From a virus (lineage: Duplodnaviria; Caudoviricetes): a DNA stretch of 29,756 nucleotides. The position numbers and the translations under genes are program-made. Location: positions 1 to 29,756 of IMG/VR virus record IMGVR_UViG_3300017766_003214, one strand, 5' to 3'. The notes under the pieces were generated by a model, which was not told the DNA's origin, did not search any database, and saw nothing but the letters and a program-made list of their open reading frames with translations. This document shows, in pieces, positions 535 through 29,756 of the stretch; position 1 is the first letter of the stretch; each line of letters begins with the position of its first letter.

Positions 535-1411
535 CCTAACTCACGCGGATCGCGGCTCGCCCTTCCAGGCGCCGCCGGCGACTCCTTACAACATCATCAG
601 CTTCGGCGCCGGCGTGCAGTCCAGCACGATGGCCCTCATGGCTGCCAAGGGCCTGATCGGGCCGATGCCGGACGCCGCGATCTTCGCGGATGTCCAGTCC
701 GAGCCCGAGTCCGTCTACACCTGGCTCGATTACATCGAGAAGCAGCTGCCCTTCCCCGTGATCCGGGTGTCCAAGGGCTGCCTGGAGAAGGACGCCCTGG
801 TCGTGAAGGAATACCTCAAGCGGCCCGGCGAATACTGGGTCAAGTCCCTGATCCCTGCTTTCGTCAAGAATGAGGACGGGTCCAAGGGCATCGTCGGCCG
901 GGCGTGCACCGCCATGTACAAGGTCGAACAGATCATCAAGGCCACCCGCCAGGCCGCCAAGATCAAGCGAGGCCAGAAACATGTGACTGTCACCCAATGG
1001 ATCGGGATCTCCTATGACGAGATGCAGCGCATGAAGCAGCCGTCCACCGCCTGGACATTCCACCGGTGGCCCCTGGTCGAGCTCAAGATGACCCGCCAGG
1101 ATTGCCTGGACTGGATGGCAGCCAACGGCTACCCCAAGCCGCCCAGGTCCAGCTGCGTGTTCTGCCCCTATCACTCCAACAAGGAGTGGATCCGGCTGCG
1201 CGATGAGGAGCCCAAGGAATTCGCACGGGCCGTGGAATTTGAGCGCCAGATGCACGCAGCCAACGCCCGCACAGTCAATCTGCGCGGGGTTCCCTACCTT
1301 CACGCCAGCCTGAAGCCCCTGGATCAGGTCAACCTGGAAGCCGGCGCCGCCGATCCCAAGCAGCGCAACTTCGACTTCAACCAGGAGTGCGAGGGCATGT
1401 GCGGAGTCTGA
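527..1411 (+). CDS. PAPS reductase/DndC-like adenine nucleotide alpha-hydrolase (PP-loop) protein, possibly Fe-S binding
   Basis: N-terminal ISFGAGVQS PP-loop, AIFAD, RACT..YKV, WIGISYDE..R, PPRSSCVFCPY, C-terminal CEGMCGV. Confidence 0.8.
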   Translation: MPDLTHADRGSPFQAPPATPYNIISFGAGVQSSTMALMAAKGLIGPMPDAAIFADVQSEPESVYTWLDYIEKQLPFPVIRVSKGCLEKDALVVKEYLKRPGEYWVKSLIPAFVKNEDGSKGIVGRACTAMYKVEQIIKATRQAAKIKRGQKHVTVTQWIGISYDEMQRMKQPSTAWTFHRWPLVELKMTRQDCLDWMAANGYPKPPRSSCVFCPYHSNKEWIRLRDEEPKEFARAVEFERQMHAANARTVNLRGVPYLHASLKPLDQVNLEAGAADPKQRNFDFNQECEGMCGV

Positions 1412-1415
1412 TCAC

Positions 1416-1625
1416 ATGAGCGACACCAACGAACGAAAGCTGATCGCCAGGATCGCCGACCAGGACCTGATCATCCGGCGTCTGATCGGCGCCGGCAACG
1501 ACATGGCTGCGGCCCTGGGCGAGGGCTGCGCCCACGATGAGGACGGCTGCGATGCCTGTGTCGCCGCCGTGGCCGTATGGGACCGGCTCTACCGGGAGAT
1601 CAAAAGAAACGACAAGGCCCCGTAA
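1416..1625 (+). CDS. Small hypothetical protein (CAHDEDGCDAC, possible metal site)
   Basis: 69-aa ORF 4 nt after the previous stop, ending in a terminator. Confidence 0.65.
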   Translation: MSDTNERKLIARIADQDLIIRRLIGAGNDMAAALGEGCAHDEDGCDACVAAVAVWDRLYREIKRNDKAP

Positions 1626-1641
1626 ACCGGGGCTTTTTTGT
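1614..1641 (+). terminator. Rho-independent terminator
   Basis: GCCCCG-TAAAC-CGGGGC stem followed by TTTTTT. Confidence 0.85.
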
Positions 1642-1662
1642 GCCCCAATCTTTTTTGAAAAT

Positions 1663-1705
1663 AAGTGCAAATTACACTTGCATGCCCTGATAACACAGCC
1701 ATGTT
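1663..1705 (+). promoter_or_regulatory. Putative promoter TTGCAT(1678-1683)-N16-CATGTT(1700-1705) with an overlapping operator-like palindrome AAGTGCAA-A-TTACACTT (1663-1679)
   Basis: AT-rich tract just after a terminator; same geometry as five other sites in the window. Confidence 0.6.
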
Positions 1706-1710
1706 CCCAT

Positions 1711-2227
1711 CTGTCGCCGTTAACCCGGCACGCGTTTTTTGACAGTCCAACCAAACCGACAAGACCTGGCATAGGCCAGGCACACAACCCAGCTGGGCAA
1801 CCAGCTGGGCCACTTTACCGGCCCCGTACGGGGCCACCAACCGCATGAACCGACAACACCAGACTCCCTCAAGAGTCCGGGCCGGTAGCCCTCCAGGCGA
1901 CCCGGCCCGTCATGCGGATCCTTTACGCCCGCTCCTGCGGGCTTGACTAGCCGGATACTGAGACCGCCCGCGCCCACTACATTTCAGGGTACACGGCGGT
2001 TTCTACGAACCGGCAGTCTTCACTTTCCGGCAGCAATGCCGGCGATCCGGTTCACCCTCCCGCGCAAGCGGGCGCCAAGCCGGCCAGAAACCAATAACCT
2101 GGAGCCCTCGGATCAGTAATGGTCCTCGGTACATGACAGGGCGCCGATAGCAATCGGCCCAGATGCCGTAAAACGCCTACGGGGGACATCGTCCGTATCC
2201 GGCCACGCGCGCCTCATCTCCGCGTGG
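1711..2227 (+). ncRNA. Candidate large structured non-coding RNA or structured leader; family not recognised
   Basis: More than 12 consecutive or nested stems, four closed by GNRA loops on the + strand (GCAA 1797-1800, 2033-2036, 2064-2067; GTAA 2116-2119); multibranch closure CCGCATGA 1841-1848/TCATGCGG 1910-1917; no convincing ORF. Confidence 0.7.
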
Positions 2228-2242
2228 TGTCTCTTTCTACTG

Positions 2243-2653
2243 ATGCGTAAGCAGCAGCCGACCCCCGTGGACACGGGCACACAGTCCACCGACGCCGGCG
2301 CGGTCAAAGCCGCCGGCAAGCCGAGCAAGTTCACGCGAGGCAAGGATGTCACCTTCAAGGTGAACTCCAAGCTGACCACGAACCTGATCACCCTCGGGCA
2401 TCTCGCGTACCAGGCCCTCGAAACGCCCGGTACCGACATCGACCTGGCGCTCTCCAAGCGTCTCTGGGTCCGCAGCGTCAAGTCGCTCATCGCTCTCCGC
2501 CTCGCCGGGGGCGGCAGCGTCCCCGCCATCAAAGGCGTGGATGTTGTCGCTTTCTACGGGGTCGAGGGCGTGAAGCCCAGCAAGACCGAAGCGGACATCA
2601 AGCGCCTGGAGGCCAGGATCGCGAAGCTCAAGGCCAAGCTCGGCAAGAAGTGA
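2243..2653 (+). CDS. Basic hypothetical protein with C-terminal coiled coil
   Basis: 136 aa, strong GC3 codon bias, Lys-rich C-terminus, followed by a hairpin. Confidence 0.8.
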   Translation: MRKQQPTPVDTGTQSTDAGAVKAAGKPSKFTRGKDVTFKVNSKLTTNLITLGHLAYQALETPGTDIDLALSKRLWVRSVKSLIALRLAGGGSVPAIKGVDVVAFYGVEGVKPSKTEADIKRLEARIAKLKAKLGKK

Positions 2654-2657
2654 ACCC

Positions 2658-2691
2658 ACGGGGCGCTCATCCAAAACGATGGGCGCCCCGT
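2658..2691 (+). other. 14-bp intergenic hairpin (processing, stabilising or weak terminator element)
   Basis: ACGGGGCGCTCATC-CAAAAC-GATGGGCGCCCCGT with one U-G pair; only a weak U tract follows. Confidence 0.65.
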
Positions 2692-2725
2692 CCTATTTAT
2701 GAGGGGCGATCCCTTTTTCCCAACC

Positions 2726-3133
2726 ATGAAACACAACCAACCCGGCAAGTGGACCGCGAGCGAGCTCGCCGACCATGCTGCCAAACAGGTTCCGGCTTAC
2801 CTTAACAAGCCGACCGAACGCCTGGTGCGGTATTACACCACGCGACAGATCCTGGACAAGCCCAACCGGACCGACGCCGACAAGCGCCGGGCCGTCTACG
2901 GCGAACGCCAGTTGTACCAGCTCCTGCTGGCCCTCGTGTTCAACTACGCGGGCCCGGGCGCCATCGAGGCCCACAGTCGCGGATACTTCCGCTTCCCCAC
3001 GACCTCGCAGACCGGCACGGAGCACGCGCTCCGGGATCTGTATCTCCAGGCAATCGGGCCCGGTGGCATCGCCAACAACGCTTACACGCTGAAGGTGAAG
3101 ACCAAGTGGCTGCCGAAGGGGGGTTCCAAGTGA
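2726..3133 (+). CDS. MerR-type helix-turn-helix DNA-binding protein
   Basis: WTASELA...TERLVRYYTTRQILDKP...RRAVYGERQLYQL resembles the MerR winged HTH; start moved to the ATG at 2726 (CCAACC-ATG context). Confidence 0.75.
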   Translation: MKHNQPGKWTASELADHAAKQVPAYLNKPTERLVRYYTTRQILDKPNRTDADKRRAVYGERQLYQLLLALVFNYAGPGAIEAHSRGYFRFPTTSQTGTEHALRDLYLQAIGPGGIANNAYTLKVKTKWLPKGGSK

Positions 3134-3594
3134 GCACCCCGGAGCTTAACCCGATCGAACCCAAGGTGCTGGAAGCCTTCTCCTATGTGATCGTCACGGC
3201 GGTCGAAGGCGGCCATTACACCCGGGACGATTACCGCGAATGGACCCAGTACGCGCATGCGGACGGCCCGGACGGGTTTTTCCAAGCTGCCGTGACTGTC
3301 TACCCCAACCGGGTCGGCAAGTACGACAGCGATGAGAAGCCCGACCCCGTGCGCGTCACCGCGGACTGGTTCGCCCGGCGCATCGCGCAGGGTTTCCTGC
3401 GCGGGATCGACAAGAAGTACCCCGGGCTCGCCTGGCCTCGCAAGCCGGCCGAAGGCCCGGAGATCCCGCCGGCGCTGTTCGACAAGGCAGCCCGGCTGCT
3501 CATCGGCGATGAAGATGTCGCCGGGGAGATCGATGTCATCGACGCCGGCGCGCTGCTTCAGGTAGCCGTCTACGGCGAGGTCATCTACGGATAA
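3130..3594 (+). CDS. Conserved phage hypothetical protein (AxEGG ... DAxxxxQxAxYGEVIYG type)
   Basis: GTGA overlap with the upstream stop; C-terminal IDAGALLQVAVYGEVIYG resembles a recurrent phage protein motif. Confidence 0.75.
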   Translation: MSTPELNPIEPKVLEAFSYVIVTAVEGGHYTRDDYREWTQYAHADGPDGFFQAAVTVYPNRVGKYDSDEKPDPVRVTADWFARRIAQGFLRGIDKKYPGLAWPRKPAEGPEIPPALFDKAARLLIGDEDVAGEIDVIDAGALLQVAVYGEVIYG

Positions 3595-3597
3595 CAA

Positions 3598-3656
3598 GGG
3601 CGAAACGCACCGGCACGGGCCGGGCGTCCCGGCGTCTCGCGCCGGCTGACGAGCCC
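3598..3656 (+). ncRNA. Type II hammerhead ribozyme; predicted cleavage after C3628 (GUC)
   Basis: Stem II GGGC 3598-3601/GCCC 3653-3656; GAAA 3602-3605; stem III ACGC-a-CCGGC/GCCGG-GCGT; GTC 3626-3628; stem I CCGGCG-TCTCG-CGCCGG 3629-3645; core CTGACGA 3646-3652. Confidence 0.92.
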
Positions 3657-3694
3657 CGTCAGTTAATCCAAACCAACCAAAAAACCGAAAAAAC

Positions 3695-4114
3695 ATGATC
3701 AAAAACCTCAACCCCGATGTCCTCAAGGCCCTGGCCGTGGACATCGACGCCGCGCTCAAGGCTGTCGCCGACAAGCATGGTCTCAGCATCACCACCGGCA
3801 ACAGTCGTTATGACGACCTGACCGCCGAAATGAAGCTGAAGATCAGCACGATCGATGACACCGGCGTCACCAACACGCGCGAACGCAACGCGCTCAACAC
3901 CTGGTCCGATCACCTCCTGAACGGGCTGCAGTACGGCGACAAGGTCACGCTGCTCACCCGCAAGGGCAAGCTGCAGTACTCTGTCGCCGGCTATGTCAGC
4001 CGGTCCGGTAAGCTGCAGATGACCGGCCCGGACCAAAAGACCTGGCTGTTTGACGCAGCCGCGGTCGTGGCGCAGATCAAGGACGGCAAGGCGTCCGTGT
4101 CCAAAGCCTCCTAA
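3695..4114 (+). CDS. Phage hypothetical protein
   Basis: 139 aa, A/C-rich leader, typical codon bias. Confidence 0.8.
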   Translation: MIKNLNPDVLKALAVDIDAALKAVADKHGLSITTGNSRYDDLTAEMKLKISTIDDTGVTNTRERNALNTWSDHLLNGLQYGDKVTLLTRKGKLQYSVAGYVSRSGKLQMTGPDQKTWLFDAAAVVAQIKDGKASVSKAS

Positions 4115-4115
4115 C

Positions 4116-4544
4116 ATGGGCCTGGACATGTTCGCCCTGTCGTGTGACCCGGCCAAGGTCACGCGCACCGATCTGGGCGTGGATCAGCTTCCCTCGTGGC
4201 ACCCGGACACCCCGGCTGACGCGACCATGATCCACACCTGGCGCAAGCACCCGGACCTCCACCAATGGATGACCGACCTGTACTTCCGTAAGGAAGCGCT
4301 GGAAGGCCCCATCACCGAAGCTGAAATGGGCCCGGCCTTCAACATGGGCCAGTTCGTGCGCCTCACGGATCACGACCTGGATCAGCTTGAAGCCGCTGTC
4401 GAAGCCGGCGCGCTGCCCAAGGCCGCCGGCTTTTTCTGGGGCGTCAGCACCCCGGACGACCGCAAGGACGACCTGGCCTTCATCAAGAAGGCCCGGAAGG
4501 CCCTCAAGGCCGGCAAGGCGGTGTTCTACACCTCGTGGTGGTGA
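4116..4544 (+). CDS. Conserved phage protein of the MGLDM...WRKH...YxSWW type
   Basis: Starts MGLDMF 1 nt after the previous stop; HTWRKHPDLHQWM, GFFWG and FYTSWW motifs. Confidence 0.8.
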   Translation: MGLDMFALSCDPAKVTRTDLGVDQLPSWHPDTPADATMIHTWRKHPDLHQWMTDLYFRKEALEGPITEAEMGPAFNMGQFVRLTDHDLDQLEAAVEAGALPKAAGFFWGVSTPDDRKDDLAFIKKARKALKAGKAVFYTSWW

Positions 4545-4564
4545 TCGGTTTGGTTGGCTGTCTC

Positions 4565-4595
4565 GGGCCCGGGGTTCATCCCCCGGGCCTTTTTT
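4565..4595 (+). terminator. Rho-independent terminator
   Basis: GGCCCGGGG-TTCATC-CCCCGGGCC followed by TTTTTT. Confidence 0.88.
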
Positions 4596-4713
4596 GTGCC
4601 CGGCGCTGTCAGCACATGATCACGAAAACGACCCTTTCCGGTTCGGAAAACCCATTTTGGTTATCCGAACGGACATAAAAGGCCCGTTCCTGTGATCATA
4701 CGCTGACAGTAGA

Positions 4714-4971
4714 TTAGATCAGCCGGCGCCAGCGCGGCAGATCCTGCCGGGCCTTGCGCAGCTTCAGCCGGTACCGGCGCATCACCTGGGCCTTGCGCGC
4801 GCGCCGATCCGCAGCCCGGCGCCGGCTCTCAGCCACCTGGCAGCGCTGCTTGTCCAGGCGGTCTTGGTACCACGCGAACATCGACCCCACCGGCCAGGCC
4901 GGCAGCTTCAGGCGCCGGATCACGCGCGGCACCGATCCCACAGGATCGAGAAATTCGCTGTTTTCGGCCAT
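4714..4971 (-). CDS. Small Arg-rich hypothetical protein (start uncertain)
   Basis: 85-aa minus-strand frame (MAENSEFLDP...) with plausible codon use; no recognisable motif. Confidence 0.4.
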   Translation of the reverse strand: MAENSEFLDPVGSVPRVIRRLKLPAWPVGSMFAWYQDRLDKQRCQVAESRRRAADRRARKAQVMRRYRLKLRKARQDLPRWRRLI

Positions 4972-4974
4972 TAT

Positions 4975-5330
4975 TTTGAGGAAAGTTCCTCGTTTTGGGA
5001 ATTTCATGAAACCCCAATGTTTTTGAGACATCCCGGAAAGACAAGCCCATCAGCTGACACTAGCGTGGTCGGCTGCCTTTCCACGCTGCCTTGCACGCCA
5101 GGCGTGCGCAACCTCATGCAGATCAGCCCCATGCAGCCAGGCGTAGATCGGCCCGGTGATCGCCTGACTTGCGCGCGAGGAAGCTTTTCCTTTCCTGTCT
5201 ACGCATCAAACCCCCGTAAACATTAGAGGAAAGTGAGTCTCCCTACGGGATAGGTTAAGACGCCCTAACGGGCTGTCGTTAACCCCCTTAGCCCTGACGG
5301 GCAGGGGGCACGACCCGTTAACTCTGATCT
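4975..5330. other. Palindrome-rich non-coding region (candidate origin or regulatory hub)
   Basis: GAGGAA-AG-TTCCTC 4978-4991, TTTCATGAAA 5002-5011, TCCCTACGGGA 5240-5250, GCCCTAACGGGC 5262-5273, GCCCTGACGGGC 5291-5302. Confidence 0.45.
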
Positions 5331-5369
5331 CGCGTAGGCCGGACCCCATCCTCACAACCTGGACAACCC

Positions 5370-5804
5370 ATGAAAGTCATCCTGATCGTCAAAGGACACC
5401 CCAGACCTCAACCCAGGCCCAGGTTCATCAAGGGCAGAGCTGTCAGCTGCGCCGATCCCCTGGCAGCCGCCTGGAAAGCCCGGATCAAAGCCGCAGCTTC
5501 CCAGGTCCACCTGGAGCTCCCCAAAGGCCCTCTCAGCTGCAGCATGTGGTTCCGGATGCCAACCAAGGACCAGGCCAGGGCCGAGAAACCTCACACCCAG
5601 GTCCCGGACCTGGACAACCTGGCTAAGCTGGTCCTGGACGCGATCCAGGACACCGGGCTCCTGGTCAACGACTCCCAGGTCGCCAGGCTCAACCTGGACA
5701 AGACCTGGGCGCCCCTGGATCACTCCGGAGTCATGGTTGAGCTCGAAACCTGGGAACCCTCAGATCAGCGCGCAGAGCTGCCAAAGCCGGGCTGGCTGGA
5801 GTAA
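5370..5804 (+). CDS. rusA: RusA-family Holliday junction resolvase
   Basis: GHPRPQPRPR N-terminus; PDLDNLAKLVLDAI and LVNDSQV catalytic-region motifs. Confidence 0.9.
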   Translation: MKVILIVKGHPRPQPRPRFIKGRAVSCADPLAAAWKARIKAAASQVHLELPKGPLSCSMWFRMPTKDQARAEKPHTQVPDLDNLAKLVLDAIQDTGLLVNDSQVARLNLDKTWAPLDHSGVMVELETWEPSDQRAELPKPGWLE

Positions 5805-6917: not shown

Positions 6918-7143
6918 GGGCAAACCCGGCAGCATACCCACCCCACCTATCGGCGCCCTCGCTCTAGTATCTCGCGCGCGTGCAAGGGAGATCCACCCAC
7001 CCACGCACCACCCCATCCACCCCATGCACACCCATCCACGGGTCAACCCCCGCCTACGCCCCCGGATTTCTCTACTCTTTTTCATCTCCCCGCGCGCGGA
7101 AAAATCCGGCGGCCCAAAAAACTTTGTCCTACATTTTGAGCCG

Positions 7144-7171
7144 TTGCACTTATTCGCAAGTTTCACACCTT
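7144..7171 (+). promoter_or_regulatory. Putative promoter TTGCAC-N16-CACCTT, 6 nt before ATG 7178
   Basis: Recurrent motif geometry; heads the morphogenesis operon. Confidence 0.6.
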
Positions 7172-7177
7172 GTCACC

Positions 7178-9117
<1,940 letters not shown>

Positions 9118-9118
<1 letters not shown>

Positions 9119-25805: not shown

Positions 25806-28800
25806 ATGGCCGTAAACATTTCCGAGAGACTGAAAACGCTTATTCAGCAGGGCGCCAACATTCCGCCGGCTGCGAGCGGAACCGCCCCTGAAGGCGGCCC
25901 TTCTCTCGCCCTTCCGCTCGATCCTTCTTTCGCTGCCGGCGTTGCCGAGCGCGTCAAAGCGGAAACACCCAGCGCGCAATTCGCCGCGCAGCAAGGCGCC
26001 CCGGCCCTGCCGACCAGCGGCGTGGACACGATCCTGAACCCGTTCGTGCAGCCCGAGGGCGTGCCGATGGGCGCTCCGACTGATCTATCATCTTTGTTCG
26101 GCATGGGCGCCGCCGGCCTCGGCCCGGTCTCGCCGGCTCCGATGTCCTCGCCCGCCCTGGGCGCCGGGCTCCCGTCCTATGACGCCGGCATGGCTCCGAC
26201 CATGGCGCCGTCCGTTTCCCCGTTTGCCCAGCCCCAGGTTCCGCCCCAGCTGGCGATGGGCCAGGCCCAGGGCCAGGCGATCACCGGTGCCACGACTCTG
26301 GCTGATCTGGTTTCCCGTGGCCTGGGCGGCCAGATGCCCCAGGCTGCCCAGATCCCCCAACTGGCCGCTCAGCCCTTTGCCCAGGCGATGCCCCAGGCGA
26401 TGCCCCAGGCTCCGGTTGCCGCTCCCCAGATGGCGCCCCAGGGTGCTTTCCCCCAGGCCCCTGGGATTGCCCAGCCCGCAGCCCCGTCCGGCATGGCGTC
26501 TTTGTTTGCGCCGCCCCCCGCTCCGCCTCAAGTTCAGTCCCCGCAGCAGCCCTATGGACAATTCGCCCCAATTCAGCCCCCGGTTCAAACGGCGGGTCAG
26601 CCCCAAGTTCCCGCTGCTCCCGCCCCCGCGCCCTTCCCGACCTTCGCCCAGCCCCCGGCAGCCCCTGCTCCGGTCGCTCCGGCTCCTGTTCAACAGGCTG
26701 CTCCGGCTCCCGCCCCGGTAGCCCAGGCTCCCGCCCCGGCGCGCCAGCAGCCGACCAGCCGCGGCACCCCGCTGCAGACCGATCCGAACGCCGTCAACCC
26801 GGCCGAGGACTTCCCGGAAGCCCTGGCTGCGCGCCGCGCCAACCAGCGCGCGGACGGCAACGACCCCGGCCGCCCGTACCAGCCGGCCCCCTACGAGCGC
26901 CCGGACGAACCGGCGCCGATCGAGCAGCCCGAGGAGCAGCCGGCCGAAGCCCCGGTCGAGCCCGAGCTGGAGCCGGCCATGGCCGCGTCTCCGCTGCAGA
27001 ACGCGCAGCCCACCACACCGGCCCTGGTCAACGGCGAGCTAATGATCTCCGGCGGCAACCGCCGTTTCTCCCGTGGCGGACCGGTCGGCGATGACGCCGG
27101 CGGCAAGGGCGTCTCGCCCAATCTGCTGCAGCGCGTGGGCCTGACCCGCGCCATCCTGAGCCAGTTCGTGGACCGGTCGGTGATCGGCACCATGACTGTC
27201 CCGGATCGCCCGATGGACAACGCGGACGATGTCGCCGCCCTGGCCTACGAATACCTCCGCAAGCAGCCCCAGGAAAACTTCATCGCGGTCATCCTGGATG
27301 GCCAGGGCCGTCCGATCCAGATCCTGCGCCATACCCTGGGCAACATCAGCTCGACCAATTTCATGCCCCATGTGATTGCCGGCGTAGCTGCCAGCACCCG
27401 TGGCGCCCGGACTGTGTACATGGTGCACAACCACCCGTCCACCACCACCCGCTTCTCCAATGCCGATGTCATGGCGGCCCAGAACCTGTACAAGACGATC
27501 GAAGCCATCGGCATGCGTTTTGGCGGTTCCCTGGTCGTGACTGACGGCGATGCGGCGCAAGGCACGATGCGCCCCAAGTACATCTTCCACCCCGGCGGCG
27601 AGGATGTTGAAAAGCTTCCGATCCCGATGGCCGGGAACGCGGACACGGCCCCAAATCTTGACAGCGTCAAGGAGGTCGTGCCGTTTGACGATCGCCCGGA
27701 AACGACCGAAACAACGGCCAACATCCAGGTCGTCGAACGCCTGTTTGAGGTCCGCAAAGAAGCCCTGTTCCCGCGCATCACCAGCCCCCAGGAAGCCGTC
27801 CTGCAGATCCCGCCCCTTCTCAGGAACCAGTCCGGTGTCGCCTTGATGGACAATGCCGGTCGCCTGGTCGGCGTGATCCCGATGAGCATCGGCGAGATGC
27901 GGAATGTGTCGTCCTCCGGCAGCATGATCTATCCGTCTCAGGGCCAAAACCGCGACTACATCAGCAGCGAGGAAGATCGCGCTCCTGGCGAGGTAGACAA
28001 GCGCGCCTACAAGCGAACCCAGTTCAGCAAAGACACCCAGCCCGGTGCCTGGAACAACCCGCTCGCCATGCTCATGGCTGCGCTGGAGCGATCCAACGCC
28101 GAGCGCGTGATCATCAGCATCGGTGCCGATGAAATTGGCACCTCGGGTAGAGACATCCGATCTGAAGCCATCAAAAATCTGCAGAAAGCCCTGCTGCGTA
28201 CCGGCGGAAAGAAGGTCTCGATCGATGATGTTATCAATAACAAGAAAAACTTCCCCGACTTGGTGCTCAAGGACACATTTTACAACGGCAGTTATTCGAC
28301 ATCGCCTGATGAAAAAGGCGGCCGTCTCAGCACCGGCCGGCGCCTGGGCTTCAACGAGGAAGGTTCCGCCTACGGCGACCAGGGCCAGGAGGGCGACCAG
28401 GCCCCGATCGAGCGCGAAGCCCCCCAGTCCCTGGGCGATGTCGTCAGCCAGGGCATGGAAGGCGAAAATGTAGCCGAGACCAACCCGGACGACCCCAACG
28501 CCGGGGCTGAATTTGCCCGCCAGGAGCGCGAGGCCGGTGCCCGCGTCAATCCTCCCAGCGGCTTGGACAACGCCAAGCCGGCCGAGCCGGTCATCAAGAA
28601 GCCGCGCAAGCCTCGGGCCAAGAAGGCCGCGGCTCCGGGCGTCAATGTCTCCGCCTTCCCCCGCCTGGACGCCACGCCTGGTGCGTTCGGCCGCCTGTCC
28701 GGCGAGCAGCTGAAACAGTTCGGCCTATCGGACGCCATGCTGGATCAGTTCATCGAGCACTCCACCTATGGCCAGGTCATGTCCGGTGTCGAGTCGGTTA

Positions 28801-29756
28801 AGACTAACGATGACGCAGCCCACATCGTGGCTGCCATGCGCAAGCGCCCTCAGGAGCAGATCGTGCTGCTGATCACCGATAAGAACGGCAAGCCCCTCCA
28901 GATTGCCGTCCATTCCCTGGGCGGCCCGGCTTCCGCCGGCTTCAACCCTGGCATCCTGATCGGCGCCGCCGCCAGCACCCCTGGCGCCGCCAAGGTATGG
29001 TTCATCCACAACCACCCGTCCGGCAAGAGCTCCCTGTCCCCGGCCGACCTGAGCGCTGGCAACGCAGTCGAGAACCTGTGCAAAGCCGCCAACCTCCGGT
29101 ACATGGCTACCATGGCCGTGGCCGGCTCCAATTACGCGGTCATGGACAACAGCGGAGCGATCATGGGTGGCCAGAAGATCCCCCCGCATCCGCGCAAGTT
29201 CAGCATCCCGCTGACCGAGCGCATCTTCTCCTACCGCGTTAGCCAGAACACCCCGGCTTTCGCGGACCCTGCCGTCGCCGGCCCCGAGATGAAGCGCATC
29301 TTTGGCGAAAGCCAGCCTGGCATCATCCTGGCCGACAACTCCAACCGCCCGGTCGCGGCGATCCCCCTGGACGGCGATGTCATGCAAGCCATGCGCGCGA
29401 TCCTGCCCGGCGAAAACCCGAACAAGCAGACTGGTTTCGCCAAATACGCAGCCGGCGTCGAGCGTTCCGGCGGGGTCAACATGTTCATCTACACGGCTGA
29501 CTTGCCAATGGATCTCGCGATCAAGGTCATCGAGAACATGAGCAAGGTCGCCAACGCGACCAAGGTCACGGCCCTGGATGCTCTGAATTCCAACGAAGTC
29601 ACCTTGTCTCGCCACATCATCGGCTACGCATCTGACTTCAAGGAGCCCGGCTCCAGCTACAACGCCGGCCAGGACGCCCAGGAGGGCGAAGCCGATGCGC
29701 CGCAGTCGATCGAGGATGTCGTCAATCAGGGGCTCTCCGAGCCCCAAAAAAAAAAG
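25806..29756 (+). CDS. Giant polyvalent-type protein (1317 codons visible, 3'-truncated) with Pro/Gln/Ala-rich N-terminus and tandem RadC/JAB domains
   Basis: Hand-translated frame MAVNISERLKTLIQQG... with no stop found to the window end; PQENF...VHNHPSTTTRFSNAD (HNHPS 27426-27440) and PQEQI...IHNHPSGKSSLSPAD (HNHPS 29007-29021). Confidence 0.88.
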   Translation, partial: MAVNISERLKTLIQQGANIPPAASGTAPEGGPSLALPLDPSFAAGVAERVKAETPSAQFAAQQGAPALPTSGVDTILNPFVQPEGVPMGAPTDLSSLFGMGAAGLGPVSPAPMSSPALGAGLPSYDAGMAPTMAPSVSPFAQPQVPPQLAMGQAQGQAITGATTLADLVSRGLGGQMPQAAQIPQLAAQPFAQAMPQAMPQAPVAAPQMAPQGAFPQAPGIAQPAAPSGMASLFAPPPAPPQVQSPQQPYGQFAPIQPPVQTAGQPQVPAAPAPAPFPTFAQPPAAPAPVAPAPVQQAAPAPAPVAQAPAPARQQPTSRGTPLQTDPNAVNPAEDFPEALAARRANQRADGNDPGRPYQPAPYERPDEPAPIEQPEEQPAEAPVEPELEPAMAASPLQNAQPTTPALVNGELMISGGNRRFSRGGPVGDDAGGKGVSPNLLQRVGLTRAILSQFVDRSVIGTMTVPDRPMDNADDVAALAYEYLRKQPQENFIAVILDGQGRPIQILRHTLGNISSTNFMPHVIAGVAASTRGARTVYMVHNHPSTTTRFSNADVMAAQNLYKTIEAIGMRFGGSLVVTDGDAAQGTMRPKYIFHPGGEDVEKLPIPMAGNADTAPNLDSVKEVVPFDDRPETTETTANIQVVERLFEVRKEALFPRITSPQEAVLQIPPLLRNQSGVALMDNAGRLVGVIPMSIGEMRNVSSSGSMIYPSQGQNRDYISSEEDRAPGEVDKRAYKRTQFSKDTQPGAWNNPLAMLMAALERSNAERVIISIGADEIGTSGRDIRSEAIKNLQKALLRTGGKKVSIDDVINNKKNFPDLVLKDTFYNGSYSTSPDEKGGRLSTGRRLGFNEEGSAYGDQGQEGDQAPIEREAPQSLGDVVSQGMEGENVAETNPDDPNAGAEFARQEREAGARVNPPSGLDNAKPAEPVIKKPRKPRAKKAAAPGVNVSAFPRLDATPGAFGRLSGEQLKQFGLSDAMLDQFIEHSTYGQVMSGVESVKTNDDAAHIVAAMRKRPQEQIVLLITDKNGKPLQIAVHSLGGPASAGFNPGILIGAAASTPGAAKVWFIHNHPSGKSSLSPADLSAGNAVENLCKAANLRYMATMAVAGSNYAVMDNSGAIMGGQKIPPHPRKFSIPLTERIFSYRVSQNTPAFADPAVAGPEMKRIFGESQPGIILADNSNRPVAAIPLDGDVMQAMRAILPGENPNKQTGFAKYAAGVERSGGVNMFIYTADLPMDLAIKVIENMSKVANATKVTALDALNSNEVTLSRHIIGYASDFKEPGSSYNAGQDAQEGEADAPQSIEDVVNQGLSEPQKKK

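Follow-up and report, generated by a model that had tools for sequence, protein, structure and literature searches.

Why would a candidate self-cleaving ribozyme be followed directly by six bases that pair with its own catalytic core? This question is raised by positions 3598 to 3663 of a 29,756-nucleotide stretch of viral DNA (IMG/VR record IMGVR_UViG_3300017766_003214), the whole of which is referred to here as the window. The role of hammerhead ribozymes between small phage genes and the control of their cleavage are stated to be open in excerpts of PMC3088659 and PMC6765202. The phage is of the tailed type, with a terminase large subunit (9109), a P22-like portal protein (10703) and a major head protein (13976). 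Its other genes include a phosphoadenosine phosphosulfate reductase-like gene (527-1411; phrog_424, E 1e-47), a gene for a collagen-repeat protein with a CBM_5_12 match, which lies between the genes of the small and the large terminase subunit (6980-9118), and, after the virion genes, a very long open-ended reading frame of more than 1300 amino acids with matches to RadC-like JAB domains (25806-29756).

The element lies in a plus-strand run of small genes, which ends at an intrinsic-terminator-like hairpin with a U tract (4565..4594) that was found by a terminator scan and closes the unit. The gene upstream of the ribozyme (3106..3594, with the stop codon TAA at 3592-3594) encodes a product with a weak match to phrog_2355, a family of unknown function (E 1e-4), and relatives of this protein share 70-88% identity. 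An A/C-rich leader (3664..3694), which is unpaired in the computed folds and shows no evident Shine-Dalgarno motif on sequence inspection, precedes the downstream gene (3695..4114). This gene encodes a protein of 139 amino acids and unknown function, for which no Pfam or PHROG family was matched; the protein has three relatives, and its Atlas matches at 0.90-0.91 are clusters of hypothetical phage proteins, in which 15-28% of the members carry PF27402, a lead only. The final gene of the predicted transcription unit, assigned from the list of open reading frames and synteny, is located at 4116..4544. Five loci were found via the upstream protein, one of which (L005) is a weak match. Ribozyme and tail are kept in L001 and L003, and the whole stretch 3596-4114 is absent from L002 and L004; the ribozyme and the downstream gene thus form a cassette. 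The cassette behaves as an insertion/deletion unit, which is bounded by the upstream stop codon. Locus L511, which was reached via the downstream protein (66% identity), has a 254-nt insert ahead of the ribozyme; its stem III shows compensatory changes, and stem I, core and tail are unchanged. Recombination of the cassette at the cleavage site was considered and dropped, as stem III of L511 is homologous and carries compensatory changes.

With regard to RNA data, one run contains 0.66 of the words sampled from 2200-4600. The contigs X1 and X2, assembled from RNA runs of two studies, end at 3602 and 3601 and restart at 3645 and 3687, respectively, and X1 has a loose end at the ribozyme; both contigs break elsewhere too, and the structural genes are equally patchy in X1, so that these breaks do not bear on cleavage. 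Further upstream, the stretch 1630-2240 is poor in open reading frames and rich in short inverted repeats, and it shows 71-78% identity in L002, L003/L510 and L511. An Rfam search of 1600-2300 gave no convincing match, and the stretch is possibly an unannotated structured RNA or a regulatory region. A T-run followed by GACAGTC (1735-1747) is also seen before transcription units of related phages, among them upstream of the ribozymes of L167 and L208; the motif contains TTGACA, yet no sigma-70-type promoter was called there.

Judged from its sequence, the plus-strand stretch 3598-3656 has all the parts of a type II hammerhead motif and is flanked by a phage gene on either side; a structural scan returned it as the single such element in the whole window. 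It begins with the 5' strand of stem II (GGGC, 3598..3601), recognized by sequence, fold and structural scan, and the core segment GAAA (3602..3605; G12, A13, A14 and A15.1 by sequence and RF02276 alignment). Stem III (3605..3627) is formed by pairing of 3605-3608 with 3624-3627 and of 3610-3614 with 3619-3623; A3609 is bulged, and the loop 3615-3618 varies in L003 and L511. The predicted cleavage site after C3628 of a GUC triplet (3628..3629) follows from the hammerhead consensus in the methods of PMC3088659. Stem I (3629..3645) consists of six G-C pairs and a 5-nt loop and is identical in L001, L003 and L511; the loop starts with U3635, seven bases past the predicted cut. The second core segment, CUGACGA (3646..3652; C3 to A9, with C3650 as N7), is also the 5' arm of the anti-core hairpin, and the 3' strand of stem II (GCCC, 3653..3656) is looped out in the hairpin fold. 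Together with U3627 and C3628, the two core segments agree at every position with the type II core consensus C3 U4 G5 A6 N7 G8 A9, G12 A13 A14 A15, U16, H17, which was likewise taken from the methods of that paper. In the minimum-energy fold of 3595-3656, all three stems adjoin the core, stems I and III being closed and stem II open. Site-specific self-cleavage after C3628 is predicted.

An Rfam search of the whole window gave no match, and a narrow search with 161 bases matched RF02276 (Hammerhead_II) with 20.1 bits (E 0.046), below the gathering threshold of 37. Among the 50,697 records of cultured phages, none had a match covering 80% of the element. The subtype with a short loop I and a 4-bp stem II is abundant in viral contigs, where about 1900 stretches were estimated for one pattern, and it may be under-annotated, as the member at 3598-3656 scores far below the RF02276 threshold. 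An adenosine directly 5' of stem II (A3597 here) is found in 163 of 164 relatives with the tail and in 175 of 180 without it (338/344) and was outside every search pattern; the U seven bases past the cut was part of three of these patterns. A rate-enhancing A·U tertiary contact is described in excerpts of PMC9217987, and A3597 would, by analogy, be the partner of U3635 in such a contact.

The earlier note had described GCTGACG (3645-3651) and CGTCAGT (3657-3663) as the arms of a 7-bp helix that traps the core. Both arms are present where it had placed them, and six Watson-Crick pairs run from C3646-G3662 to G3651-C3657 around the loop AGCCC (3652-3656). The seventh pair is a G3645·U3663 wobble, which is not conserved and would compete for G3645 with C3629, its partner in the closing pair of stem I. 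The conserved helix has 5-6 bp and not 7, and the tail (3657..3663) consists of CGUCAG (3657-3662), invariant in L001, L003 and L511, and the non-conserved U3663. The hairpin loop contains the 3' strand of the 4-bp stem II, so that the active fold is excluded, as had been claimed; two mutually exclusive folds, both conserved, are present, as expected of a switchable ribozyme. A transcript ending at 3656 adopts the hammerhead fold (-33.0 kcal/mol), and transcripts to 3663 or 3700 adopt the hairpin fold. For transcripts with ends at 3659-3663 and more sequence on the 5' side, pairing with 3587-3590 is predicted, which is not conserved. Constrained folds have energies of -37.8 kcal/mol (hammerhead) and -40.2 kcal/mol (hairpin), a predicted preference of 2.4 kcal/mol for the hairpin, and the probability of stem II drops from 0.82 to 0.035 once the tail is included. 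The energy model leaves out core and tertiary contacts and hence overstates the off state, and the true gap is likely to be smaller. In the family, the predicted stem II occupancy is 0.005 for elements with the tail, 0.28 for those without it and 0.57 when the tail is held open, and the nearest-neighbour fold balance favours the off fold in the precursor by a median of -3.2 kcal/mol (89 elements; interquartile range -5.3 to -1.6). Stem II of tailed elements is no stronger than that of tail-less ones (p=0.62); a correlation between hairpin and stem II energies (rho 0.41, 0.76) was set aside, as the two share bases and depend on G+C content. In the 3' product, freeing the core and the stem II strand costs 7.1 kcal/mol with the tail and 1.4 kcal/mol with the tail held open; the family medians are 6.65 (tailed), 1.61 (tail held open) and 2.8 (tail-less).

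To determine how common the tail is, pattern scans without a tail term were combined with scans requiring TCAG, whose 5' neighbour was left free. This gave 378 distinct elements, all of which passed a pairing filter on the three stems; matches failing the filter were dropped before counting (e.g. 11/132 loci). The tail-unselected scans, which contributed 244 elements, covered 83 stretches (complete), 121 of about 390 and 132 of about 1900, and one TCAG-requiring scan covered 127 of about 740, so the survey counts are samples. Relatedness was handled by clustering and paired comparisons rather than by a tree. TCAG is the most enriched 4-mer right after stem II (43 occurrences in the 244 listed elements versus a mean of 2.5 in six later windows). 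Among the matches listed, it is located at tail positions 2-9 in 58 of the 244 tail-unselected elements, and the tail is missing from 186. Of 241 de-duplicated relatives, 40 have a perfect CUGAN complement at 4-8 nt of the tail, versus 0.12 per background window, the background being equal windows further downstream; the tail thus exceeds chance. Tailed elements are present in 35 of 40 loci of genome collections, a scan that required the tail and from which no frequency follows; the titles of these loci name Alphaproteobacteria, Acidobacteria, Actinobacteria, Bacteroidetes, Chloroflexi, Clostridia and others. Among the matches listed, none of 126 long-loop type II hammerheads, most of which form a pseudoknot, has the anti-core tail versus 49 of 237 short-loop elements (p=2e-10). 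The 3' product of the long-loop subtype has its own pseudoknot and mostly a stem II of 2-3 bp.

The earlier note had pointed to covariation in homologues and to conservation of the complement as informative for its proposal, and both turned out to be strong: where the partner lies outside stem II, N7 pairs with its tail partner in 97 of 99 elements. The combinations are C-G in 52, U-A in 38, U·G in 7, C·A in none and others in 2 (p=3e-20). The link persists with one element per cluster and state at 80% identity (42/33/7/0 in the same order, p=2e-16) and with clustering at 70% identity (24/22/7/0, p=4e-9). Tail-unselected elements alone show 23 C-G, 19 U-A and 1 U·G of 43; of 51 control elements that lack TCAG and have N7=C, A follows in 29 and G in 9. 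Furthermore, the link holds inside each stem II class, and compensatory switches occur between copies on one contig in L174, L177, L365 and L399. Seven U·G combinations versus no C·A point to pairing of RNA. By this pattern of substitutions, the anti-core pairing is judged to be under selection in short-loop phage hammerheads. A second class comprises 86 elements in which the complement is provided by the stem II strand; the link is weaker there and C·A occurs 7 times. In 73 elements, including those of L311, L267, L303 and L399, the 3' strand of stem II is GGUC or GAUC and forms the anti-core together with a following AG; the loop has 3 nt, and a single base is linked by covariation to N7 as well as to the 5' strand of stem II.

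The position of the hairpin relative to the neighbouring stems is informative as well. A Watson-Crick pair at the seventh position occurs in 10 of 168 tailed elements versus about 30 expected (0/3000 permutations), and a C opposite the closing G of stem I in 1 of 63. Extension inwards is favoured, with a C opposite G8 in 20 of 32 elements versus 21% in the background. Judged from these frequencies, it is the geometry of the hairpin and not its strength that is constrained, and the seventh pair of the earlier note lies outside the design. With stem I largely spared by the hairpin, the product would retain its 5'-terminal pair. Start codons follow at a median of 23 nt past the hairpin end in tailed and 22 nt past stem II in tail-less elements, which would fit a hairpin that is still present while the mRNA is translated.

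Several other roles of the tail were considered and rejected. Among short-loop elements, 4 of 90 with and 7 of 173 without the anti-core tail could form a pseudoknot of at least 4 pairs between loop I and the 3' tail, which does not exceed the permuted sequences; the same test detected 96 of 126 long-loop elements versus 36 permuted as a positive control, and such a pseudoknot was rejected as the reason for the tail. Pairing of loop I with the 5' flank did not exceed permutation either. The hairpin is absent from the 13 terminator-like sites in 1400-5400 and is followed by UUAAUCC, which speaks against an intrinsic terminator. Freeing of the ribosome site was dismissed because its opening energy is 5.5 in tailed elements, 5.3 with the tail held open and 5.7 in tail-less elements (p=0.83, 0.67), and blocking of circularization because tailed elements are located in loci with several ribozymes no more often than tail-less ones (16/58 versus 60/183).

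The explanation that we favour, and to which we give close to an even chance, is a cut-then-lock device: only after the ribozyme has folded and cut would its core be captured by the tail. In transcript order, stem II is complete six bases ahead of the tail. The native fold, aided by the putative A3597·U3635 contact, would cut after C3628 and split the polycistronic message. The products are predicted to be held together only by the 4-bp stem II and this contact; pairing of the tail with CUGACG would remove the stem II strand, thereby releasing the products and preventing their re-joining. The downstream mRNA would consequently start with a base-paired 5'-OH end, two flush hairpins and an open leader. 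On uncut RNA, the hairpin is predicted to lower the active fraction, so that the tail would act as a partial brake, which we take to be a cost or a secondary use and not the main selected role. Catalytic speed appears to be selected, since the A at position -1 is kept in 163 of 164 tailed elements and a weakened ribozyme would be a cheaper brake. The kept A, the geometry, the start-codon spacing and the rise of the product cost from 1.4 to 7.1 kcal/mol together fit cutting followed by locking, which is further supported by the covariation of the pairing, the distribution of the tail between long-loop and short-loop elements (0/126 versus 49/237) and the inward rather than outward extension. 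On the other side, the energies taken at face value leave 1-2% of the RNA active, with a half-time of minutes, which fits a brake as the main effect, and the intact stem I also fits an off state that is poised to switch back. In addition, the tail is missing from roughly three quarters of short-loop elements, which means that locking is not required. The lack of enrichment in multi-ribozyme loci and the unchanged strength of stem II in tailed elements also count against this explanation.

It is conceivable, if rather doubtful, that slowing is itself the function: hairpin and active fold would exchange quickly without any outside signal, and the tail would set the cleaved fraction or the delay, and hence the ratio of polycistronic to monocistronic message. 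The low predicted stem II occupancy of tailed elements, the avoidance of outward hairpin extension and the variable hairpin strength (loops of 3-10 nt, wobbles and the wide interquartile range of the fold balance) are in line with such a timer, and attenuation by flanking sequence is known naturally for the HDV ribozyme (PMC3553993, in excerpts). However, a single change in the core or of the A at -1, which is nearly invariant, would slow cleavage more cheaply, inward extension is favoured and not capped, and the off state is overstated by the energy model. The earlier note had instead restricted cleavage to a co-transcriptional window or placed it under the influence of ribosomes stopping at 3594. 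A strict window is not supported: during transcription of six nucleotides at 20-50 nt/s, 0.2-5% of the RNA would be cleaved with rate constants of 1.2-10 per min and 11-26% with 60 per min. The elongation rates and the two higher rate constants are assumed, and 1.2 per min is the lower bound that the available part of PMC3088659 gives for one type II ribozyme. For the second proposal, a ribosome terminating at 3594 would cover A3597 and GGGC while the tail traps the core, so that stem II is blocked or unwound and upstream translation decides whether the message is cut; we regard this as unlikely. The two mutually exclusive folds differ little in energy, and the stop codon lies 3 nt ahead of stem II here and in L003 and overlaps stem II in L511/L203, where the upstream gene is a different one. 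Ends of open reading frames fall into the 19-nt stem II window in 71 of 107 tailed elements (control windows: 2-8 per group, 2-6 for the tailed elements), but equally in 93 of 117 tail-less ones, and compact gene packing explains this adjacency. A stop within 12 nt is, if anything, rarer with the tail (71/107 versus 95/119, p=0.024, in the direction opposite to the proposal; 24/35 versus 93/116 in the tail-unselected sets, p=0.17), and of the 58 elements whose tail lies outside stem II, 18 lack an upstream stop within 30 nt. With upstream stops no commoner in tailed elements, modulation by ribosomes is not supported as the purpose of the tail; ribosomes may nevertheless modulate folding at 3598-3663. 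In short-loop type II hammerheads as a whole, 164 of 224 have the end of an open reading frame at -12 to +6 nt of stem II, and the stop codon often overlaps the conserved A.

An off state that ends when the hairpin is opened, be it by an antisense RNA, by a protein of phage or host or by a ribosome that initiates on the downstream gene, would agree with the predicted dominance of the off fold and with the suggestion of regulated cleavage in phage hammerheads by Perreault et al. (PMC3088659, in excerpts). The loop, however, varies widely in length and sequence and thus offers no fixed recognition surface, and in three quarters of the cases the hairpin ends at least 20 nt from the start codon, so gating by such a factor is very unlikely. 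The two arms are also a perfect inverted repeat in DNA, and they might represent a DNA palindrome, serving as operator or recombination site, or a by-product of template switching that keeps the arms matched. Template switching produces concerted changes, and C·A occurs 7 times in the 86 elements whose partner base lies inside stem II, both of which count in favour of an origin at the DNA level. Outside stem II, the absence of C·A next to seven U·G favours pairing of the sense RNA (binomial p=0.016) and U4·G variants exist (3 versus 0.5 in the background); in addition, the spacer of 3 to about 10 nt is unlike that of an operator, and the repeat persists where stems I and III have fully diverged. 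We therefore regard an origin at the DNA level as extremely improbable.

Taken together, the second fold of a known ribozyme class is real, selected and apparently undescribed: a conserved fold that excludes catalysis is found in about a quarter of the short-loop subtype and is missing from the pseudoknot subtype. A product lock, a brake and a translation-gated switch can be told apart by means of six bases and one compensatory pair, and any of the three, if true, would be a natural design principle for which no precedent was found in the literature covered. Should the improbable gating by translation apply, there would be a widespread natural class of two-state phage hammerheads, six extra bases would make a translation-gated ribozyme switch, and translation of one gene would determine if the following gene is released as a stable message of its own. 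If any of the three readings is true, the tail would furthermore be a compact part for ribozyme insulators. In insulators of the RiboJ type, the 5' end ahead of the downstream gene is set by self-cleavage and carries a hairpin before the ribosome site. RiboJ is synthetic and its hairpin is appended, whereas the phage hairpin is built from the catalytic core itself.

With the type II hammerheads of PMC3088659 and RF02276, as far as excerpts of the paper show, the element shares the topology, the core consensus, the GUC site and the location between small phage genes. In the published consensus, however, the 3' tail forms an activating pseudoknot with a long loop I, whereas the element at 3598-3663 has a 5-nt loop I and a 4-bp stem II, and its tail pairs with the core instead. 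A core-complementary tail is not mentioned in the covered part of the text and supplement of PMC3088659, whose alignments (Dataset S1) may contain such tails without annotation, and no description of such a tail on phage hammerheads was found in the literature covered, which lies mostly outside subscription journals. Activity in cells has been shown for three type II ribozymes of D. vulgaris (PMC8782182, in excerpts). These have a long loop and a tail complementary to it, and their printed 39-nt fragments contain no anti-core tail; they are therefore no test of it. Natural sequences next to a ribozyme that pair with some of its nucleotides, and thereby compete with its active fold, have been described in other systems, namely the blocking of the HDV ribozyme by upstream sequence (PMC3553993, PMC2396440), the attenuation of the sBYDV hammerhead (Miller and Silver 1991, as cited in PMC1636495) and the viroid hammerheads that are kept in rod-like folds (PMC1636495), all according to excerpts of these papers. 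These attenuators belong to replicating RNA pathogens and act over a long range or from upstream, whereas the phage tail forms a minimal local hairpin 3' of the core, is encoded in DNA and recurs, with covariation, across many unrelated phages and contigs of numerous bacterial groups. The closest engineered likeness are the cis-blocked hammerheads of Kennedy, Liang and Smolke 2013 (PMC3553993), in which, in the designs seen in excerpts, a complement in cis prevents the active fold and in some cases targets the core between stems I and II. Those blockers are synthetic, are placed 5' of the ribozyme and act from the start, whereas the phage blocker is located 3' and emerges after the ribozyme is complete.
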